Positions 26,168 through 36,602 of a DNA stretch of 64,000 nt are shown here, one piece after another. The notes below the pieces were generated by a model, which saw only the letters and a list, made by a program, of their open reading frames with translations, did not search any database and was not told the origin of the DNA. Source of the DNA: Dictyostelium discoideum (lineage: Eukaryota); NCBI GenBank assembly GCA_000004695.1, contig CM000151.3, positions 1,600,001-1,664,000 of the forward strand, in the 5' to 3' direction. Numbering within the stretch: the stretch's first letter is position 1; the number at the start of each line of letters is the position of its first letter. A program made the position numbers and the translations under genes.

Positions 26168-26232
26168 ATGTCTTCAATTAAAATCAAAAGTATAACAATC
26201 AATCACTCAAACTATTTAATTAGAGTGACAAG
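26168..26232 (+). CDS. FG-repeat protein paralog A, exon 1 (MSSIKIKSITINHSNYLIRVT-)
   Basis: ATG + GTAAGT donor. Mirrors exon 1 of paralog B (MLPIRNITINHSSNQIFIT-), and both end in the same splice phase. Confidence 0.55.
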
Positions 26233-26397
26233 GTAAGTTGTTTTTTTTTTTTATTTTTTTTTTTTTTATTTTTTTATTTTAGCATAAGAATATATTTACC
26301 AATAAACCTTTTTTTTTTCTTTCTTTTTTCTTTCTGTTTTTTTTTTTTTTTTTTTATCAATTTTTTTATTTTTTTTATTTATTTTCAAAAAAAAAAG

Positions 26398-28966
26398 ACA
26401 AATTTCATTTGAACCTAGTAATGGAGAGTATGTATTTTATTTACCAGATGAAATAAATAGTAAAGAGGCAATTGATGTTGAAGATCCAGTTTGTAATGGA
26501 TCAACATTATTGTATCCTCGTAAACCATCATTCCCAGCAGATTTGGAACGTTTCAAGAATCAAAGATTCAAAATTCAAACAATTGATGGTTGTCAAATCA
26601 TTGGTAAATTAATTGGTACACATGAATCGTCAAAGACAAGTACCCAAAATGTGGTAACAATTGATGTTGAAACTTTTCATTCACCAAAGAATTCATTAAC
26701 AGTTCCAAAAGGTTTAATATCATTAAACCAATCTCAAGTGTTAACTTATTTCCTTCTAGAAGAATCATCACCATCATCATCAACTGGATTTCAAGTTGGA
26801 AATGCCAATAGATATACAAAGATCGTTATCAACAATACAAGCATTGCAAGAGATATCTTAGTAAGTTATTGTGTCATTGGTAATTCAGATTCACTTGGTT
26901 ATTTTGTTCATTCAGTTAAAGGTATTCAAAGTAAACCATTATACACTAAACCAAATTTAGAATCCAACATTCCAATTAAAATTACAACTGAATATATTTG
27001 GAAACCAATTTGGGATATTACAATTGATAGAGAATCAAATTTAGTTGGTGATGGTCATAACAACAATAACAACAACAACAACAACATAACTGATGATGGT
27101 AGTTTTTATGGTGGGTCAGGTGTAACATTTAATATTATAACAAAAGATGAAAAATATGTTTACACAGTTGAAAATTTTGTTTGTTATAAAAATTATGAAA
27201 ATAAAATTCAACTCAATTCATTCGAAACTACATGTAATCGTGCAGTATTTGTTCATTTAGCTGGTCCAATTCAAATTGCATTATACTTTGAAAATAATTC
27301 AAAATCATTACTATCAAAATCAACTATTAAATTTGTTGATGATTATACTGAATCACCAAATTTAGATTTATCAAAACCAACAACATTCCAACAAAATACA
27401 AGAGATTTTGGTAATAATATCAAAAAACCAGTTGGATTGTTCTTTTCAAATGATAAGAAAACAGAATTTGAATTTTTAAATCCAGTTGAACCAAAATCAA
27501 TTGGTATCATTGTATTTAAAGTTCCAAATGAAAGTATTAAAGTTTACAAGGATATTGCTCATCAACCATTATGGGGAACTAAATCAAAGGAATATAGAAT
27601 CAATGAAATTAAATTATCACTTATCTTTACATTAATGGATGCTCAAGTTTTAAGTAAAATTAAATATCAATTTGTAAATGCAACTCAACTTAAAACAAAA
27701 TATATTGTTGATTGTAATTCAATCACTATTAATAAAACTAATAATAATAACAATGCTTTTGGTGGTGCTACTGCTGCCAATGGTCGTGGTGGTGGTGATG
27801 ATGATGATGATTCCGGATTACCAAGAAATGAAGATGTCAGTATCGATACTTCAAATTGTGAAAAGATTGGTGAAACTTTATACCTTTTTGACTCTTTACC
27901 ACTTTCAATTAATCAATTTGAAATGACCTATAGAAATAAGAAACAATTAATGACTCATTCTAGATTACCACAAGTTGTTTTAACCTATTTAAAAGAAAAA
28001 GGTATTGATGTTAGTTATAGTCCAAATAAATTTGATACTTATGATCTCTCAAGTTTGGATTCAATCACTCAAGATACTCTCATTAAATTAATGGGTACTT
28101 TATCATTGGAAGAGAAAACAAGTAATTATTTCAATAAAGCATTCTCAACAAGTCCAATTGCAAGCATTTTATTCGATGCTTATGATTTCAATCAAACTGC
28201 AAGTAAAGGTTCATTTAATAATAATCCATCTTTCGGTTTATTTGGTTCACAACCACCTCAACAACAACAACAACAACAACAACAGCAACAAGGAGTAGGA
28301 GGTTTGTTTAGTAATGCACCTCAAGCTCATGGTTTTAGTTCTGGAGGTCTTTTTGGTTCAACTGCACCACCACAAACCAGTTCTTTCGGATTTGGAGGAT
28401 TCAGTAGTGCTCCAGTTTCAGCAACACCATCAGCAGCACCATCATTATTTGGTAGATTAGTTAGTGCTCCAGTTTCAGCAACACCATCAGCAGTACCAAC
28501 TGCCACTTCACAATTCGGTGGAACAACAAGTTTTAATAAAATTGAAACTCCAACTGGTACCCCTACCTCTTTTTCATTTGGTGCTTCCACAACACCAAGT
28601 TCCTCAGGATTTGGGGGATTCGGTAGTGCTCCAGTCTCAACAACACCATCATTTGGTGCTATCCCTTCTTCCCCAGTTGAAAAAACAACAGCAACAACAA
28701 CAACAACAGCAACTCCTCATTCAAATACAGAATCATCACTATTTGGAAGCACACAAGCCAATATCACTTCATTGTTTGGTGGCTCGTCTACTCCACAACC
28801 ATCCACATTCTCATTTTCAACACCACAATCAAAATTTGAAAATAATGATACCACTGATTATACTCCAACACCAACTGATAATATTACTCTTACTTCAATT
28901 TCAGCAATGCCACAATTCTCAAATAAATCTGTTGAAGAAATCAAACATGAACAAACAAAAAAATAA
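26398..28966 (+). CDS. FG-repeat protein paralog A, exon 2: about 600-aa N-terminal globular region + C-terminal SLFG/FGxFG/GFGG repeat region (nucleoporin-like)
   Basis: ORF track 26510..28966, extended in frame to the AAAAAAG acceptor. C-terminal FG repeats separated by Thr/Ser/Pro spacers. Poly-Q tract. Confidence 0.75.
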
Positions 28967-29713
28967 ATTTGTAAATCCAATAAATAAATAAAGATAAGAT
29001 TATAGAATATAACATTTTATATATATGTTTTTTTTTTTTCAATATTATTTTATTTTATTTTATTTTATTTTATTTTATTTTATTTTATAAAAATTTTATA
29101 TTATTTTTAAATTATTTCTTTGGTTTTAAAATTTAAATTTGTTTTTTTATCATAAATCAAAAAAAAATGAAATTCTCTTAGTATTTGAGTTATTCAATTT
29201 CATTTGAATAATCAAAATTCAAAAAATAAAAAATATCAATAAAAACTATATAATTTAATTTTATTTTTTTTTAAAAAAAAAAAAAAAATCATTAGAAAAA
29301 TAATCTTTTTATTTATTTCCATATTTTTTATAAAAATAAATTTAATATTGGGTTGAATTATATCATCAAGTTCTATTGAATCTTGTGTTCTTGATGGTAC
29401 TGTATTTGCCCAACAAGATAAAACAAATTTAAATTTGTGAAAAAATTAGTTGTTTCACTATACATAGATTCACAAAAAGTAAATAATATCTTTTTACTTT
29501 TTTTTTTTTTTTTTTTGAACAAAAGGGAAATTATTTTTATTACAATATTAACTATCATCACCATATTAATAAACCTTTTTTTTTTTTTTTTTTTTTTTCT
29601 CTTTCCACTTTTTTTTTTTTTCTTTTTAAATTTAAATTTAGGAAAATACAGAAACTTTTAATTTTCAAATTAATGAAATTAAAGATGAAAATGGTTAAAT
29701 AAAAACATTAGTT

Positions 29714-30922
29714 ATGCCAATTTCAATTTCATTTAAAAAATCAGAAATATTTATAAATTATCCATTGGTTTATTTGCAAAATGTAGCATATCAACCAAAA
29801 GAAACAGTAATTTATAAAACAGATTATCTTGTAACTAGTGGTTGTAAAGATACACCAAGTGATCATACATGTCCAGGTGCAACAGAAATCAATGGTAAAT
29901 TAATAAGAGATAGTCAAGGATTTTGTTGTAGTTGTTAAATGTCTGATTATATTGATGCTGATCAAAATTCAAGAGCAAATTTAGGTTGTTCACTATTAGG
30001 TTCCCAATCATCATCAGCACACTGTTTATCATTTAGTCCAATGAAATATGATGTTTATAATATTGCCAAAACTCAAGTTGAATATAAAATCACAGCAACA
30101 TTAACCTATAGTTATAATCAAAATCCAATCACTCAAGATATAATTTTATCAAATTCAAATCCAATGGGAATGGATTCATTCAGCCAAGCTATGATTAGAA
30201 TTGTTGGCGATTTTCAATCGTCAACTCAAATTAATCAATTCACTGATAAGAAAGTTGTGTTTCCATATAATCAACCAAATTCAATAAATACTGCTATGTT
30301 GTTAGACCAGAATTTCTTTGATTTGTCAGGGTTAACATGTAATAAAATTGGGGTTTCCTATAGTGCCTTTCAAAATCAACCAAATAAATGTGCAGCTTTA
30401 TTTGGGTCTTGCCTTCAAAATCAAATCGCTGATTATTATAATGCTGATGTCACATTAATTTCAAATGGAAAGAAAGGAAACTATATTGCATCTCAATTTG
30501 GTACAAAAGTTGCAGGTGACCAAAATTCAAGATCATTGAAAATTAGATTCGATGAATCTCATAGAACAATGTTAACAATTACATTGAAAGCTGATTCACT
30601 TCAATATAGAGTTGATATATCACCAGGTAAAATTATAAGTTATCAAATCGATCGATTTGAGTCAATGTCAAAAAATGGTATATTAAGAGTAAAAGTTCAA
30701 AATATTGGTACAATTAATTCAGATTATACATTGGCAATAGTTAATTGTTCAGGTGATATTAATCCTATAGATAGTAAAGATGTAACCATAAAATCAAAGG
30801 AAATTTATAGTTTTGAATTTCAAATTTTTACAACTTCAAAATTAGATTCATCTTATCAATGTTTTGGTGATTTATATAATGAAGTTGCTCAAGTTATCCA
30901 TAGTTGCCCATGCCAAAATTAA
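29714..30922 (+). pseudogene. HAP2/GCS1-like ORF interrupted by an in-frame TAA (29936-29938) and ending at the edge of a foldback element; probable gene fragment/pseudogene
   Basis: Two ORFs (29714..29938 and 29939..30922) lie in the same frame, separated by a single stop: …IRDSQGFCCSC*MSDYIDADQNSRANLGCSLLGSQSSSAHCLSF… The CC-x-C … SAHCL pattern matches my recollection of the HAP2-GCS1 signature domain. No TM helix or tail follows. Confidence 0.45.
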
Positions 30923-31463
30923 TATGGCTGCTGAAATTAATATGGTAATTTTGGCATGGGACTTATGTCTGCTAGAATTACCACATTAATTTCAGCAGCC
31001 ATATTAATTTTGGCATGCACAGACCAACTATTTTAGGCTGAAATTAATATGGCTGCCGAAATTAATATGGTAATTTTGGGCATAGAAAAATAAAAAAAAA
31101 ACTCAAAGTCATTTAATTAATAATAATCATCTCAAATATAAAAGAATTAAAAATAATAAAAAAAAACTCATGGGATTAATTACAGTAACAATACTGATGA
31201 CAAGAATAATTATAAAATAAAAAAAAAAAAAAAATCTTTTTTTATCTTTTTATTTTTATTTCTTATTTATTTTCATGTGTTCAAAAAAAGTGGTGGTTTA
31301 AAACAATTTATTTAATTTTAAACTGTATGATTGTTTAAACAATTTCGAAATAAGTTTCTTTAAAGAAATTCTGTATTTCTTTTTTTTATTTTATTTTATT
31401 TCATTTCATTCTATTTTTTTATTTTTATTTTTTTATTTTTTTTTTTTTTTTTGTATATTTAAG

Positions 31464-31620
<157 letters not shown>

Positions 31621-31804
31621 TACTATTATTTAATTGACCGAAGGGATATCTTTTACTTTTTTTTTATATATAATTGTTCGAAACTTTAAAAAATAAAATA
31701 AAAAAAAAAAAATTAAAAAAAAAAATATAAAAAAAAAATTAAAAAAATTAAAAAGTATTTTTTTTTTTTATTTTTTTATTTTTCCACCCGAAGATGTCGC
31801 TTTT

Positions 31805-32206
31805 TTGGAATTTAAAGATGTTGAATTCAATCAAAGTGATGAATTTGGTGTATTATTTAACGAAGTTACTATTGATAAAAATGATTTGAAGTACAAAGTA
31901 AATGTTGAATTTAGAGAGGCGGAGACAAGTAAAAATAAATTGCAAAGGGATATCGAAATAACCAAAAGAAAATCAACAGATGACCTAGTTGAAAAAGCAA
32001 TCGAGCACTCTACCACCGAAGTTAGATCAACACATGAAGCTGCAACAACTTCCAATAATGGTGGAATCACAACTCAATCAAACAAAAACAAAACGGGTAA
32101 AAAAAGAGCTAATCAATTACAATCTGATGCTGATTTTACCAAAAGATTTTCAAACGAAACTTCATCTGTTAGTAACAAAAGAGAAAGTAGAAGAGTCAAT
32201 AATTAA
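31805..32206 (+). CDS. Possible small charged protein (133 aa; Lys/Glu/Thr-rich) inside the foldback element; no ATG at the ORF start (TTG)
   Basis: ORF track only. It is not low-complexity. No homology recognised. Confidence 0.2.
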   Translation: MEFKDVEFNQSDEFGVLFNEVTIDKNDLKYKVNVEFREAETSKNKLQRDIEITKRKSTDDLVEKAIEHSTTEVRSTHEAATTSNNGGITTQSNKNKTGKKRANQLQSDADFTKRFSNETSSVSNKRESRRVNN

Positions 32207-32859
32207 AATAAAAAATTAAAAAAAAAAAATTATTTTAATTTTTTTTTTTTTTTTTTTTTTTTATTTTTAATTTTTTTTTTTATTTTTAATTTTTTTTTAT
32301 TTTTAATTTTTTTTTTTGTGAGCCGTAGACATAAATGAATAATAAAAAAATATATATCAACTAAAAAAAAAAGAAATGAAAATAAATTATAAAATTAATA
32401 ATAAAAACAAAAAGATAAAAATAAATAAAAGATATAAATAAAATAATATGAAAATTTTTTTTTTTTTTTTTTTTATTATTATAATTATTATAATAAAAAT
32501 AATAATAATAAAATTTTGTTTATTTTTGAGATGATTATTAATTAAATGACTTTGACTTTTTTTTTTTTTCTATGCCAAAATTACCATATTAATTTTGGCA
32601 GCTATGTACATGCTGAAATTAATATGGCTGCTGAAATTAATACGGTAATTTTGGCAGACATAAGTCCCATGCCAAAATTAATATGGCTGCTGAAATTAAT
32701 ATGGTAATTTTGGCATGGGACACATAGTATAAGATTAATTTTAATACATCTGAAACTATGATTGATAATGGTCCTCAATCTGGTGAGAATTCATTGGATA
32801 GAGATTCTTTAAATATTGGTTCTCAATTTACTTGTGATGATGTTAGCCCAAATTTGTAA

Positions 32860-32901
<42 letters not shown>

Positions 32902-33396
32902 AAATATTAATTTTAATATTATTCATTTATAATTATTATTTATTTATAGATTAAATATAGTTTGCTATTATGACCAACTAAAAATTTGTAGAACTAAATT
33001 TGCATTGTTTTTAACAGTTCTTGTAGTTATAGTAATAGTTATTATTTTATGTTTTAAATTACCGATTATTAGAAATTTTCTTAGCTAATATTTTGTTGTG
33101 GTTGTTCTTGCTTTAAAAATAAAAAGAAGAAATCACCATCAAGAAAAATAAATCTCAAAAAATAATAACATTAACAAAAAAAAAAAAAAAGAAAAAAAAA
33201 AAAATAAAAAAAAAAAAAAAAAATAACAATTATAATAATAACAATAAAAAATATTCTATTTTTGGAATAACTGATTGGTGTTATTTTTATAATTGTGGTT
33301 ATTCCCCCATTTTTTTTTTTTTTTGATTTGAAATATTTTGATGATTTTCAAAACATAGGGAATTTGTAAATTTGGTTCAGTGGGGTGTAGGTTAAA

Positions 33397-33572: not shown

Positions 33573-33631
33573 ATGCTCCCCATAAGAAATATTACAATCA
33601 ATCATTCTAGTAACCAAATATTTATAACAAG
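33573..33631 (+). CDS. FG-repeat protein paralog B, exon 1 (MLPIRNITINHSSNQIFIT-)
   Basis: ATG + GTAAGA donor. Paralogous to 26168-26232. Confidence 0.55.
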
Positions 33632-33712
33632 GTAAGAGCCATTACTATTGAAAAAAAAAAAAAAATTTATTTAAACAGTTTTTAAATTTTTTTTATTTAT
33701 TTTTATTTTTAG

Positions 33713-36602
33713 ATGTATTTGTATTGGTAATGAAATTGAAAAAAAAAAAAGTATTTTTGGAAATGAAATTGAAAAACATTGTTTATTTCCAATACCAGAA
33801 ACAATAAATAGTGATGAAATAATTACTGTTGAGGATAGTGTTGAAAATGGTTCAACTTTATTTCATTTGAAAAAACCAGAATTTCCAAGAGATTTAGAAC
33901 TTTACAAAAACCAAAAATTTATTTTTCAAACCTTAAACTATGGTCAAATTATTGGCACATTTATTGAAATTGATAATAGAAATAAATTAGAAAACAAATT
34001 TTTAGTATTGGATGTTGAAGAAGTCAATAACATTTGTAATGTAAAACCATTTTCAAAAGGAATAATATTATTAAATGAAAATGAAATATCATCATTTATT
34101 TTATTTGACCCAAAATCTAATATTAGTGGACCAGAAACTTATAAATCAAATGCAAAATTGGTAATCAATAATACCACCATATCAAGAGAGATTTTCGTTA
34201 CCCATTGTTCCAAAGTTAATGAAGAGTCTCTTGGATATTATCATCATTTAATTAGAGGTATTGAATTTAATGACCTATTTACTGAACCAAATTTAAAGCC
34301 AAACATTCCAATTAAAGTTTTAACTGAATTTGTTTGGAAACCAATGTTTAATATTGGTGACATTAATAATAACACACAAGAGTCAAAAGTTTCTTTAACA
34401 ATTATAACAAATGATGAAAAGTCTATTTATTCAGTTGAAAATTTTAAATGTTTAAAAAACTATGAGACAAAGATAATAATCAATTCATTTGAAACAACAT
34501 ATAATAGAGCAGTTTTAATTCATCCAATGGGTCCAAATCAAATTTCAATATATTTCAAAAACACTTCAAAATTATTATTTACAAAATCCACAATTCAATT
34601 GGTAAATAGTTATGAAAACCATATGATTGATTTGGTTGATGGTGAAGAAATATTTCTTCAACAAATTGATTATTTTAATTGTGAAACCCAATCATTGGAA
34701 TTATTGAATTCTGTTAGACCAAACTCCACGTGTGTTATGATTTTAAAAGTTCCTAATGAAAAAATTAAAATCTACCAAGAAATTTCTCACCAACCACTAT
34801 TTCCAGCAAGATCAAAGAGAACAAAAATTCAAAGAATAAAAATTTCAAAGGACATTATTTTTATAGATTTTGAATTTAAAAATAAAATTAAGTACCAAAT
34901 TGTCAATTCCTCTCAATTTAAAACCAAAATGCTTATTCATTGCCCAAATAAAGAATTTAATATTAAAGGAATTTCTTGTAAGGAAATCAACAATGATGTT
35001 GATAGAAATTTATATCTTTTGGATTCAGATGCACTTTCAATAAAAGATTTAACATTATATTCTGTAAAGAACGAACAAGTATTTTCAGGTTCAAGTTTTT
35101 CAAAAGTTATTTCAAAATTCTTAGAAAAAAATGATTTTAAAAATACCATCTTAGATTCAGGAAAATTTGAAATTTTTAATTTTACAAATATGGATAAAAA
35201 ATTTCAAAAAGACCTCTCCAAATTATTAGAAAAAGTGTATTTTGAAAAAAGTGATTCTAGTTATTTTGAAAAACAGTTCTCAAAAATGTCACTAAAAGAA
35301 TCATTATTTGATCCTCTCTTATGGAGGGAGCATTCCCTTTATAGATTTTCAAACCAGAACAAGTTTTTTTTTGATTCTGATGCAAACTCTTTTTTTAAAT
35401 CATTAAGTTTTGATACAGTTTCTAATAACAATACCATTTCTTCAACTGGACCTTACAGCCCCATACCAATTTCTTCCTTCCCATTTCAAAAAAATGCAGA
35501 ATCTTTGGATCCTCCACCAATTCCTATCGAAGATATCTCCAATAGAAAAGATAAAAGTGGTGGCACATCTCCTATACCAAAACCAGTTGGAAAAGAAACC
35601 TCAAATACAAATAAATCATCTCAGGAAAATAATAAAAGAAGCTCTGACAAGAAAGTTACCTTTTGTACAAGTGAACCATCATTAGGTAACAAATCTCTAT
35701 TTGGAAGTTCATCCAATCAACAAACTCCTGTAAAAATAGAGCCATCTTTGGAGACCAAATCTCTTTTTGGAAAACATACAACTCCAAGTACAACTGAATC
35801 ATCTGTGTGTACCAAATCCGCTTTTGGAAGTTCACCCCCATCATTATTTGGTCAATCATCTCCCAACAAAACAACTTCAACCACTGAATCTGGCTTGGGT
35901 GAGGGAGAATCAATATCAACAACAACAACAAAAACTAGTGCATTTGGAAGCTCCTCAACTCCTTCATTTGGTGGTACATCTGCATTTGGTGGCCCTCAAA
36001 CTACAGGTGCATTTGGTAGCACTACAACAACTAGTATGTTTGGAAGATCCCCAACCACTTTATATGGTAGTTCTCCAACTACAACGACTAGTATGTTTGG
36101 AAGTAATTCAAACACTTTATATGGTAGTTCTCCAACTACAACAACTAGTATGTTTGGAAGATCCCCAACCACTTTATATGGTAGTTCTCCAACTCCAACG
36201 ACTAGTATATTTGGAAGCTCCTCAACAACTTTATATGGTAGTTCTCCAACTACAACAACTAGTATATTTGGAAGCACTTCAACCCCTTTATTTGGCAGTG
36301 CTTCAACTACAAAAACTAGTTTATTTGGAAGCTCCTCAATATTTGATGCAAAAAATCTCAACAAGACAACTCCAAAAGAAGAAATAAAGAAAGAATCTGA
36401 GGATATAAATGAAAATTCTTCTGAATTACCAGAATTAGTTCAAGATGAAGATTACGATATAGACCAAGTTGAAGATTTAGATGAAGATCAAGTTGAAGAT
36501 TTAGATGAAGATTACGATGAAGATCAAGTTGAAGATTACGATGAAGATCAAGTTGAAGATTTAGATGAAGATCAAGTTGAAAATTCAAAAGATTCAGTTT
36601 AA
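33713..36602 (+). CDS. FG-repeat protein paralog B, exon 2: conserved N-terminal region + SAFG/SLFG/SMFG repeats + C-terminal acidic (DEDQVEDLDE)n repeat
   Basis: ORF track 33867..36602, extended to the TTTTAG acceptor. Clear collinear similarity to paralog A (…NGSTL(L/F)…(R/K)KP(S/E)FP(A/R)DLE(R/L)(F/Y)KNQ(R/K)F…QIIG…). Confidence 0.75.
36040..36300 (+). repeat. 60-bp tandem repeat x about 5 within the paralog B CDS (encodes SPTTTTSMFGRSPTTLYGS units)
   Basis: Near-identical 60-nt units are visible. They produce overlapping spurious ORFs in other frames (35767..36387, 35996..36364). Confidence 0.8.

Follow-up and report, generated by a model that had tools for sequence, protein, structure and literature searches.

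A 64,000-nt stretch of Dictyostelium discoideum AX4 chromosome 2 (GenBank contig CM000151.3, positions 1,600,001 to 1,664,000; called the window below, and the basis of all positions given here unless a chromosome is named) contains, with a probability that we would put at about 0.9, a pseudogene that arose by duplication and no longer works as the class II gamete fusogen HAP2/GCS1, at approximately 1,629,288-1,633,170 of chromosome 2. A decayed duplicate carrying a transposon is by itself ordinary, and the family is a well-known one; what is new, modestly, is a third D. discoideum HAP2 locus, together with intact and apparently constrained alleles of it in other isolates.

The initial annotation, made from the sequence alone, had described positions 29714-30922 (+ strand) as one continuous HAP2/GCS1-like frame broken by a single TAA. 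Translation of this segment reproduces the peptide that it quoted, with the TAA at 29936-29938 as the sole internal stop and a terminus reading VIHSCPCQN before the final stop. The family assignment, for which a Pfam search had been proposed, held as well: the read-through product matches PF10699 (HAP2-GCS1) over profile positions 46-458 of 515 with E=7e-102 and 342 bits (cut-off 27.4 bits), far beyond chance, and the two halves of the frame, on either side of the TAA, are separately significant (3e-18 and 4e-78). By exact-sequence look-up, the open reading frame (ORF) 3′ of the TAA is identical to an annotated AX4 protein of 327 aa:

29939-30922, + strand: ORF DDB_G0272452 (XP_645269.1; UniProt Q559R5), beginning at internal Met164 of the ancestral protein and ending in transposon sequence

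This “HAP2 domain-containing protein” is what remains of a full hapA-like gene. As annotated it is an artefact of ORF calling, with an internal methionine as its start and neither signal peptide nor membrane anchor. The ATG at 29714 is likewise not the start of the gene, and corresponds to Met89 of the ancestral protein. The flagged TAA replaces ancestral codon 163 (TCA, Ser). It had been placed inside the signature motif of the family, but lies immediately 3′ of the conserved GFCCxC segment and outside the classical 49-aa H/G motif, which is found ~120 codons further on at residues 283-331 (numbered as by Okamoto et al. for HgrA, with which the present gene is in register).

The exon-intron structure was obtained by aligning the window with an intact allele from another assembly (L001, described below). 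It extends the gene in both directions: exon 1 and intron 1 (29288-29641) had been overlooked upstream, and the gene, previously thought to be truncated and to have no transmembrane or cytoplasmic region, is in fact interrupted, resuming beyond a transposon of 1818 bp with the 3′ end of exon 2, followed by intron 2 and a remnant of exon 3. The parts recognized in AX4 are:

29288-29478, + strand: exon 1 remnant, signal peptide and N-terminus (alignment with intact alleles L001 and L004)
29479-29641, + strand: intron 1, GTAAAT...TTTAG, 14% GC, positioned as in the intact allele
29642-30904, + strand: 5′ part of exon 2, HAP2 ectodomain, codons 65-487 (identified by tblastn, the lesions listed below, and Pfam)
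32729-32855, + strand: 3′ part of exon 2, end of domain III and stem (alignment with the intact allele)
32856-32949, + strand: intron 2, GTAAAT...TATAG, 4% GC; shared in position with an intron of the D. purpureum gene
32950-33172, + strand: exon 3 remnant (alignment with the intact allele)
32999-33055, + strand: transmembrane segment FALFLTVLVVIVIVIILCF, within the exon 3 remnant, downstream of the insertion
33094-33111, + strand: Cys-rich juxtamembrane motif CCGCSC, within the exon 3 remnant

The 5′ part of exon 2 is 96.7% identical over 423 aa to the intact protein P0001 (tblastn), and the same query found no second HAP2 copy within the window. Both introns are retained, and a functional paralogue, hgrA, lies elsewhere (2:6,445,628), as in a duplicated, non-processed pseudogene. 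The elements of a type I membrane protein are all recognizable (a hydrophobic N-terminus from 29291, the transmembrane segment, and the CCGCSC motif), but no single ORF joins them, because the start codon has been lost and stops, frameshifts and the 1.8-kb insertion intervene. Of the conserved cysteine framework and the GFCCxC/Arg segment, GFCCSC and Arg175 are kept; Cys50 and the invariant Cys527 have become Phe and Ser respectively.

The flagged stop, which the initial annotation gave as the lesion, is real, but it is one of at least a dozen. Scored relative to the intact alleles L001 and L004, they are:

29288-29290, + strand: start loss, ATG to ATC (exon 1)
29354-29356, + strand: nonsense, GGA to TGA, codon 23 (exon 1)
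after 29430, + strand: 1-nt deletion, codon 48 (exon 1)
29434-29436, + strand: Cys50 to Phe (Cys50 is conserved in all dictyostelid orthologues)
29696-29698, + strand: nonsense, AAA to TAA, codon 83 (exon 2)
29936-29938, + strand: nonsense, TCA to TAA, codon 163, the flagged stop (exon 2)
between 30506 and 30507, + strand: 6-nt in-frame deletion (exon 2)
30905-32722, no strand assigned: 1818-bp insertion, splitting exon 2
after 32733, + strand: 1-nt deletion, codon 489 (3′ part of exon 2)
32845-32847, + strand: Cys527 to Ser (Cys527 is invariant in two family alignments)
after 33081, after 33143, and before 33165, + strand: three 1-nt deletions, codons 574, 595 and 603 (exon 3)
33082-33084, + strand: TAG in the ancestral frame, codon 575, arising after a frameshift (exon 3)

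Together these include three independent nonsense codons, a fourth stop following a frameshift, five 1-nt deletions, and two conserved cysteines replaced; the acidic C-terminal tail has become unalignable. D. purpureum, P. violaceum, C. fasciculata, H. album and T. lacteum all preserve the ancestral states at the lesion sites. Judged against an intact orthologue, the copy carries several disabling mutations, and the outgroups support what was there before.

Intact alleles are found at the same position in other genomes. In a homology search, ACTFIW_011523 (P0001, 637 aa) is 97% identical to the read-through product, and its 90% cluster also includes ACTFIR_012485 (P0015, 641 aa) along with the AX4 fragment. 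Both proteins come from recent “D. discoideum” assemblies, where they are encoded by intact ORFs with the same two introns, in a gene order shared with the window (ComC-like, AAA/FtsH, FG-repeat, HAP2, second FG-repeat). The L001 sequence is collinear with the window over 22 kb at ~92% nucleotide identity, and its spliced translation is exactly ACTFIW_011523. Compared with these two alleles, the AX4 copy has 97% protein identity over the alignable ectodomain and the same neighbours, but the alleles run uninterrupted from signal peptide to tail and have no transposon. The initial description, a sexual-fusion gene present in an extra copy that is decaying, is borne out. The codon corresponding to 29936, which it had proposed to look up in other strains, is Ser TCA in the intact alleles.

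ACTFIW_011523 matches PF10699 over nearly its full length (401 bits, E=8e-120, profile positions 1-513 of 515). By inspection of their sequences, the intact alleles have type I topology, ACTFIW_011523 possessing a signal peptide, a transmembrane segment, the CCGCSC motif, and a basic/acidic tail. It also matches solved HAP2 ectodomains, from T. cruzi, Chlamydomonas, Arabidopsis and Cyanidioschyzon: 5OW4 at 3e-61; 5MF1, 5OW3 and 6E18 at ~1e-48; and 5MF1, 6E18, 5OW3, 6DBS and 7S0K as a set at 1e-41 to 1e-48. The two intact alleles differ by 11 nonsynonymous and 13 synonymous changes (omega 0.21, P=2.6e-4 against neutrality), a pattern consistent with a gene under constraint, and they would appear to be functional.

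The assemblies containing the intact alleles represent divergent lineages, since the DNA flanking the gene is only ~92% identical to that of AX4. They are probably those of the tropical isolates CR116C and OT3A (bioRxiv 10.1101/2025.08.01.668227); according to the same source, these two mate with AX2, while the cryptic sister species M4B and S6B mate with it poorly. In a further assembly, labelled “D. cf. discoideum” (ACTFIZ; L003, GCA_054859235.1), the gene has decayed separately: approximately the first 145 codons are gone, there are deletions of 400, 17 and 4 nt, and stops are present at codons 426 and 571, while codon 163 is still the sense codon TCA. This set of lesions differs from that of AX4, indicating that the gene has been lost at least twice independently. 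The automated model here (ACTFIZ_001521, 1143 aa, L003 6001-10361) fuses the scattered pieces left of the HAP2 pseudogene to the FG-repeat gene upstream of it, and is an annotation artefact.

The element that splits exon 2 has the hallmarks of a cut-and-paste transposon: terminal inverted repeats, an apparent target-site duplication, and a counterpart site that is precisely empty in related genomes. Its parts are:

30905-32722, no strand assigned: thug-S-like non-autonomous DNA transposon, 1818 bp, absent from L001, L004 and L003 and present in a second assembly with the dead allele (L002)
30899-30904 (left) and 32723-32728 (right), no strand assigned: CATAGT, read as a 6-bp target-site duplication; the blastn match of the intact allele falls into two pieces that share exactly these 6 nt
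30905 to ~31125 and ~32528 to 32722, no strand assigned: terminal inverted repeats of ~220 bp (from their alignment)
30921-31007, no strand assigned: terminal foldback, a mir-7131 microRNA precursor hairpin (Rfam RF03716, 93.8 bits, both strands; gathering score 74)
31805-32206, + strand: ORF of 133 aa, not a transposase; a 126-aa spliced gene is annotated here in L002

The empty site, ATCCATAGTATAAGA, is uninterrupted in all three genomes lacking the element. CATAGT is interpreted as a target-site duplication from this one insertion. The initial annotation had the ORF ending exactly where an inverted-repeat element begins, and this is accurate at the level of the coding sequence: the last HAP2 codon is AGT (30902-30904), the element begins at 30905, and the final TGC CCA TGC CAA AAT TAA of the flagged ORF derives from the element, in which the frame stops after six codons. 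The hairpin at the left end is near-perfect (predicted fold -83 kcal/mol, z=-11.9), and the element includes exact copies of miRNA_can_D3-5p and miRNA_can_D3-3p, a microRNA (miRNA) located in the DNA transposon thug-S (Meier et al.). The element resembles thug-S in these copies and the mir-7131 hairpin, in its long structured inverted termini, and in its small intron-containing ORF. “Thug-S-like” is thus a probable family name, taken from miRNA content and the literature rather than from alignment to a consensus. The 133-aa ORF has no Pfam match and no known domain, and tRNA and Rfam scans of the window detected nothing besides the mir-7131 hairpin, on which literature searches turned up no paper. 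The element also includes a long (TAT)n microsatellite (31469-31620).

D. discoideum has been described as having two HAP2-GCS1 homologues, with the present locus unmentioned (Okamoto et al., 2016, PMC4910948): hgrA (= hapA, DDB_G0276069, XP_643321.1; 2:6,445,628-6,448,087), the orthologue needed for fusion of type-I and type-II gametes, and hgrB (= mrhA, DDB_G0281923). The locus described here is separate from both, being 4.8 Mb from hapA/hgrA, and no discussion of DDB_G0272452 as a third HAP2 locus was found in the accessible literature. A comparison with hapA and mrhA had been suggested initially; for hapA/hgrA it could be made by way of primers, and for mrhA/hgrB what was established is that it is another locus. 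Nine hgrA primers (Okamoto et al. Table S1) can be placed on the present gene in the order to be expected, spanning it from its start codon to ~codon 505, and the seven that were compared give 80% identity over 188 nt. Over the same 188 nt, identity to the D. purpureum gene is 68% for hgrA and 67% for the present gene. The place of CNKIGVSYSAFQNQ...CLQNQ, the H/G motif region of ACTFIW_011523, agrees with the numbering of this motif in HgrA, so the two proteins correspond position by position. The present gene and hgrA therefore resemble each other in family and layout, with start codon and H/G motif numbering in common and both on chromosome 2. They differ in that hgrA is intact and functional in KAX3/AX2 while the AX4 third copy is disabled, and this copy would not substitute for hgrA there.

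Among other dictyostelids, the homology matches of the present gene include exactly the three accessions (XP_003291595.1, XP_004359139.1 and EFA79298.1) that were listed as HgrA orthologues by Okamoto et al. (2016, PMC4910948). They align with it from signal peptide to transmembrane segment, with protein identities of 59% (D. purpureum XP_003291595.1, DICPUDRAFT_156210), 41% (C. fasciculata XP_004359139.1) and 36% (H. album EFA79298.1). The single D. purpureum gene, approximately equidistant from the present gene and hgrA, is best seen as a co-ortholog of both. It has no neighbours in common with the window, being flanked by genes for YhhN and a mitochondrial carrier. The simplest reading would be that hapA was duplicated in the D. 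discoideum lineage once this had split from D. purpureum.

From these observations a history can be proposed, in which both the timing and the order of events are conjectural. A copy of hapA/hgrA would have arisen after the D. purpureum split and ended up with an FG-repeat gene on either side. On the way to the laboratory strains it would then have lost its start codon and gained nonsense codons and single-base deletions, and a thug-S-like cut-and-paste transposon, with the mir-7131 precursor as its terminal hairpin, would have split the gene. The AX4 copy can no longer produce a full-length secreted, membrane-anchored fusogen, and is presumably not expressed. In keeping with this, the published gamete-membrane proteome lists the two genes next to DDB_G0272452 but not DDB_G0272452 itself; since even HgrA was hardly detected there, this absence is weak evidence against a protein product.

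Several points weigh against this reading. AX4 and the second assembly with the same dead allele stem from one isolate, and so sample that allele in nature only once. The paralogy to hgrA is deduced from 188 nt of primer sequence. Over codons 1-600, the AX4 branch has 23 nonsynonymous and 24 synonymous changes (pN/pS 0.25), a ratio that Fisher's test does not separate from the one for the intact tips (P=0.6), so that no relaxation of selection was detected on this branch; decay would then be recent relative to the synonymous divergence (dS) of ~0.1 between lineages, which fits somewhat uneasily with a dozen lesions. A further objection is that the locus might, as a transcribed pseudogene or transposon host, act through regulatory RNA, for instance by giving rise to mir-7131 or to small RNAs directed at hgrA. 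The strong hairpin scoring as a mir-7131 precursor, the exact copies of published mature miRNAs, and the ~80% identity to hgrA at primer sites can all be cited for this. The miRNA, however, occurs in multiple copies with the transposon family and is not specific to this locus, and 80% identity is low for cross-targeting by small interfering RNAs, making such a role quite improbable.

Other explanations would leave the gene, or some product of it, functional. The frame does run on perfectly over the single TAA within 29714-30922, as programmed readthrough or recoding of this stop would require. One readthrough event would rescue nothing, however: upstream are the ATC in place of the start codon, two more stops and a frameshift, and downstream are the 1818-bp insertion and four more frameshifts. 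Codon 163 is moreover an ordinary serine codon in the intact alleles and in all outgroups. Readthrough, already considered the less likely alternative in the initial annotation, is on this evidence a negligible prospect. Errors in the reference sequence, with the gene intact in the actual strain, would be a natural suspicion for those lesions that are 1-nt deletions in A/T runs, a typical class of error; errors of this homopolymer type would not produce the nonsense codons or the insertion. Every lesion, and the transposon, is also present in an independent assembly from long and short reads (L002, GCA_054883475.1; probably AX2-214, from the same preprint as the tropical isolates), which matches the window at 99.7% identity over 21 kb. 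Assembly error is thus hardly credible.

Splicing offers another way around the stop, and very probably a false one. A GTAAAT...AG pair bounds an in-frame segment of 81 nt containing the TAA (29895-29975), and was used by a gene finder for a 337-aa model in L002 (P0002); alternatively, the 327-aa ORF might be a genuine soluble protein. The supposed intron has 27% GC, in line with the 28% of the exons and not with the 14% and 4% of the real introns, and is coding sequence in all intact alleles. Its excision would cost the protein the invariant DSQGFCCxC segment along with the conserved Arg175. Neither the 337-aa nor the 327-aa model has a signal peptide or a membrane anchor, and neither is backed by peptides in the published gamete-membrane proteome. 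A disabled duplicate, interrupted by a transposon, remains the reading that we prefer for AX4.

A different question is what the intact alleles do. It is conceivable, although we think it unlikely, that they encode a working third fusogen, an in-paralogue of hapA that is present in some members of the species complex and absent from others, has been lost independently at least twice, and by its presence or loss partly accounts for how laboratory and tropical or cryptic isolates differ in mating efficiency or gamete compatibility. In any case, an intact and apparently constrained copy in some tropical isolates provides a natural contrast of presence and absence for the role of a duplicated fusogen, in a species that has at least three mating types, and has some bearing on the gain and loss of sex genes. 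HAP2 duplication and decay may be recurrent among dictyostelids. On a practical level, the gene models DDB_G0272452, ACTFIT_002506 (L002) and the fused ACTFIZ model deserve to be marked as pseudogene fragments, and primers, probes and peptide searches for hapA need to be checked against a copy that is ~80% identical.

The two D. discoideum GCS1 genes of Hirai et al. (2008) were both regarded as portions of hgrA by Okamoto et al. (2016, PMC4910948); one of these entries might instead have been the DDB_G0272452 pseudogene.

The pseudogene is flanked by FG-repeat genes, DDB_G0272200 (2:1,626,168-1,628,966; window 26168-28966) and DDB_G0272294 (2:1,633,573-1,636,602; window 33573-36602). Their chromosomal positions, from Okamoto et al. 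Table S3, agree with window ORF ends at 28966 and 36602 and so place the window on AX4 chromosome 2. These are paralogues, with 36% identity over 555 aa, and DDB_G0272294 passes the Pfam threshold for Nucleoporin_FG; the fusogen copy landed within, or became flanked by, a tandem pair of such genes. Elsewhere among the dictyostelids, T. lacteum has two adjacent HAP2 genes in one 90% cluster (DLAC_00291 and DLAC_00292; P0174/P0006), one of them encoding just 387 aa, and H. album has a second, short HAP2-like protein of 371 aa (PPL_08729; P0042).

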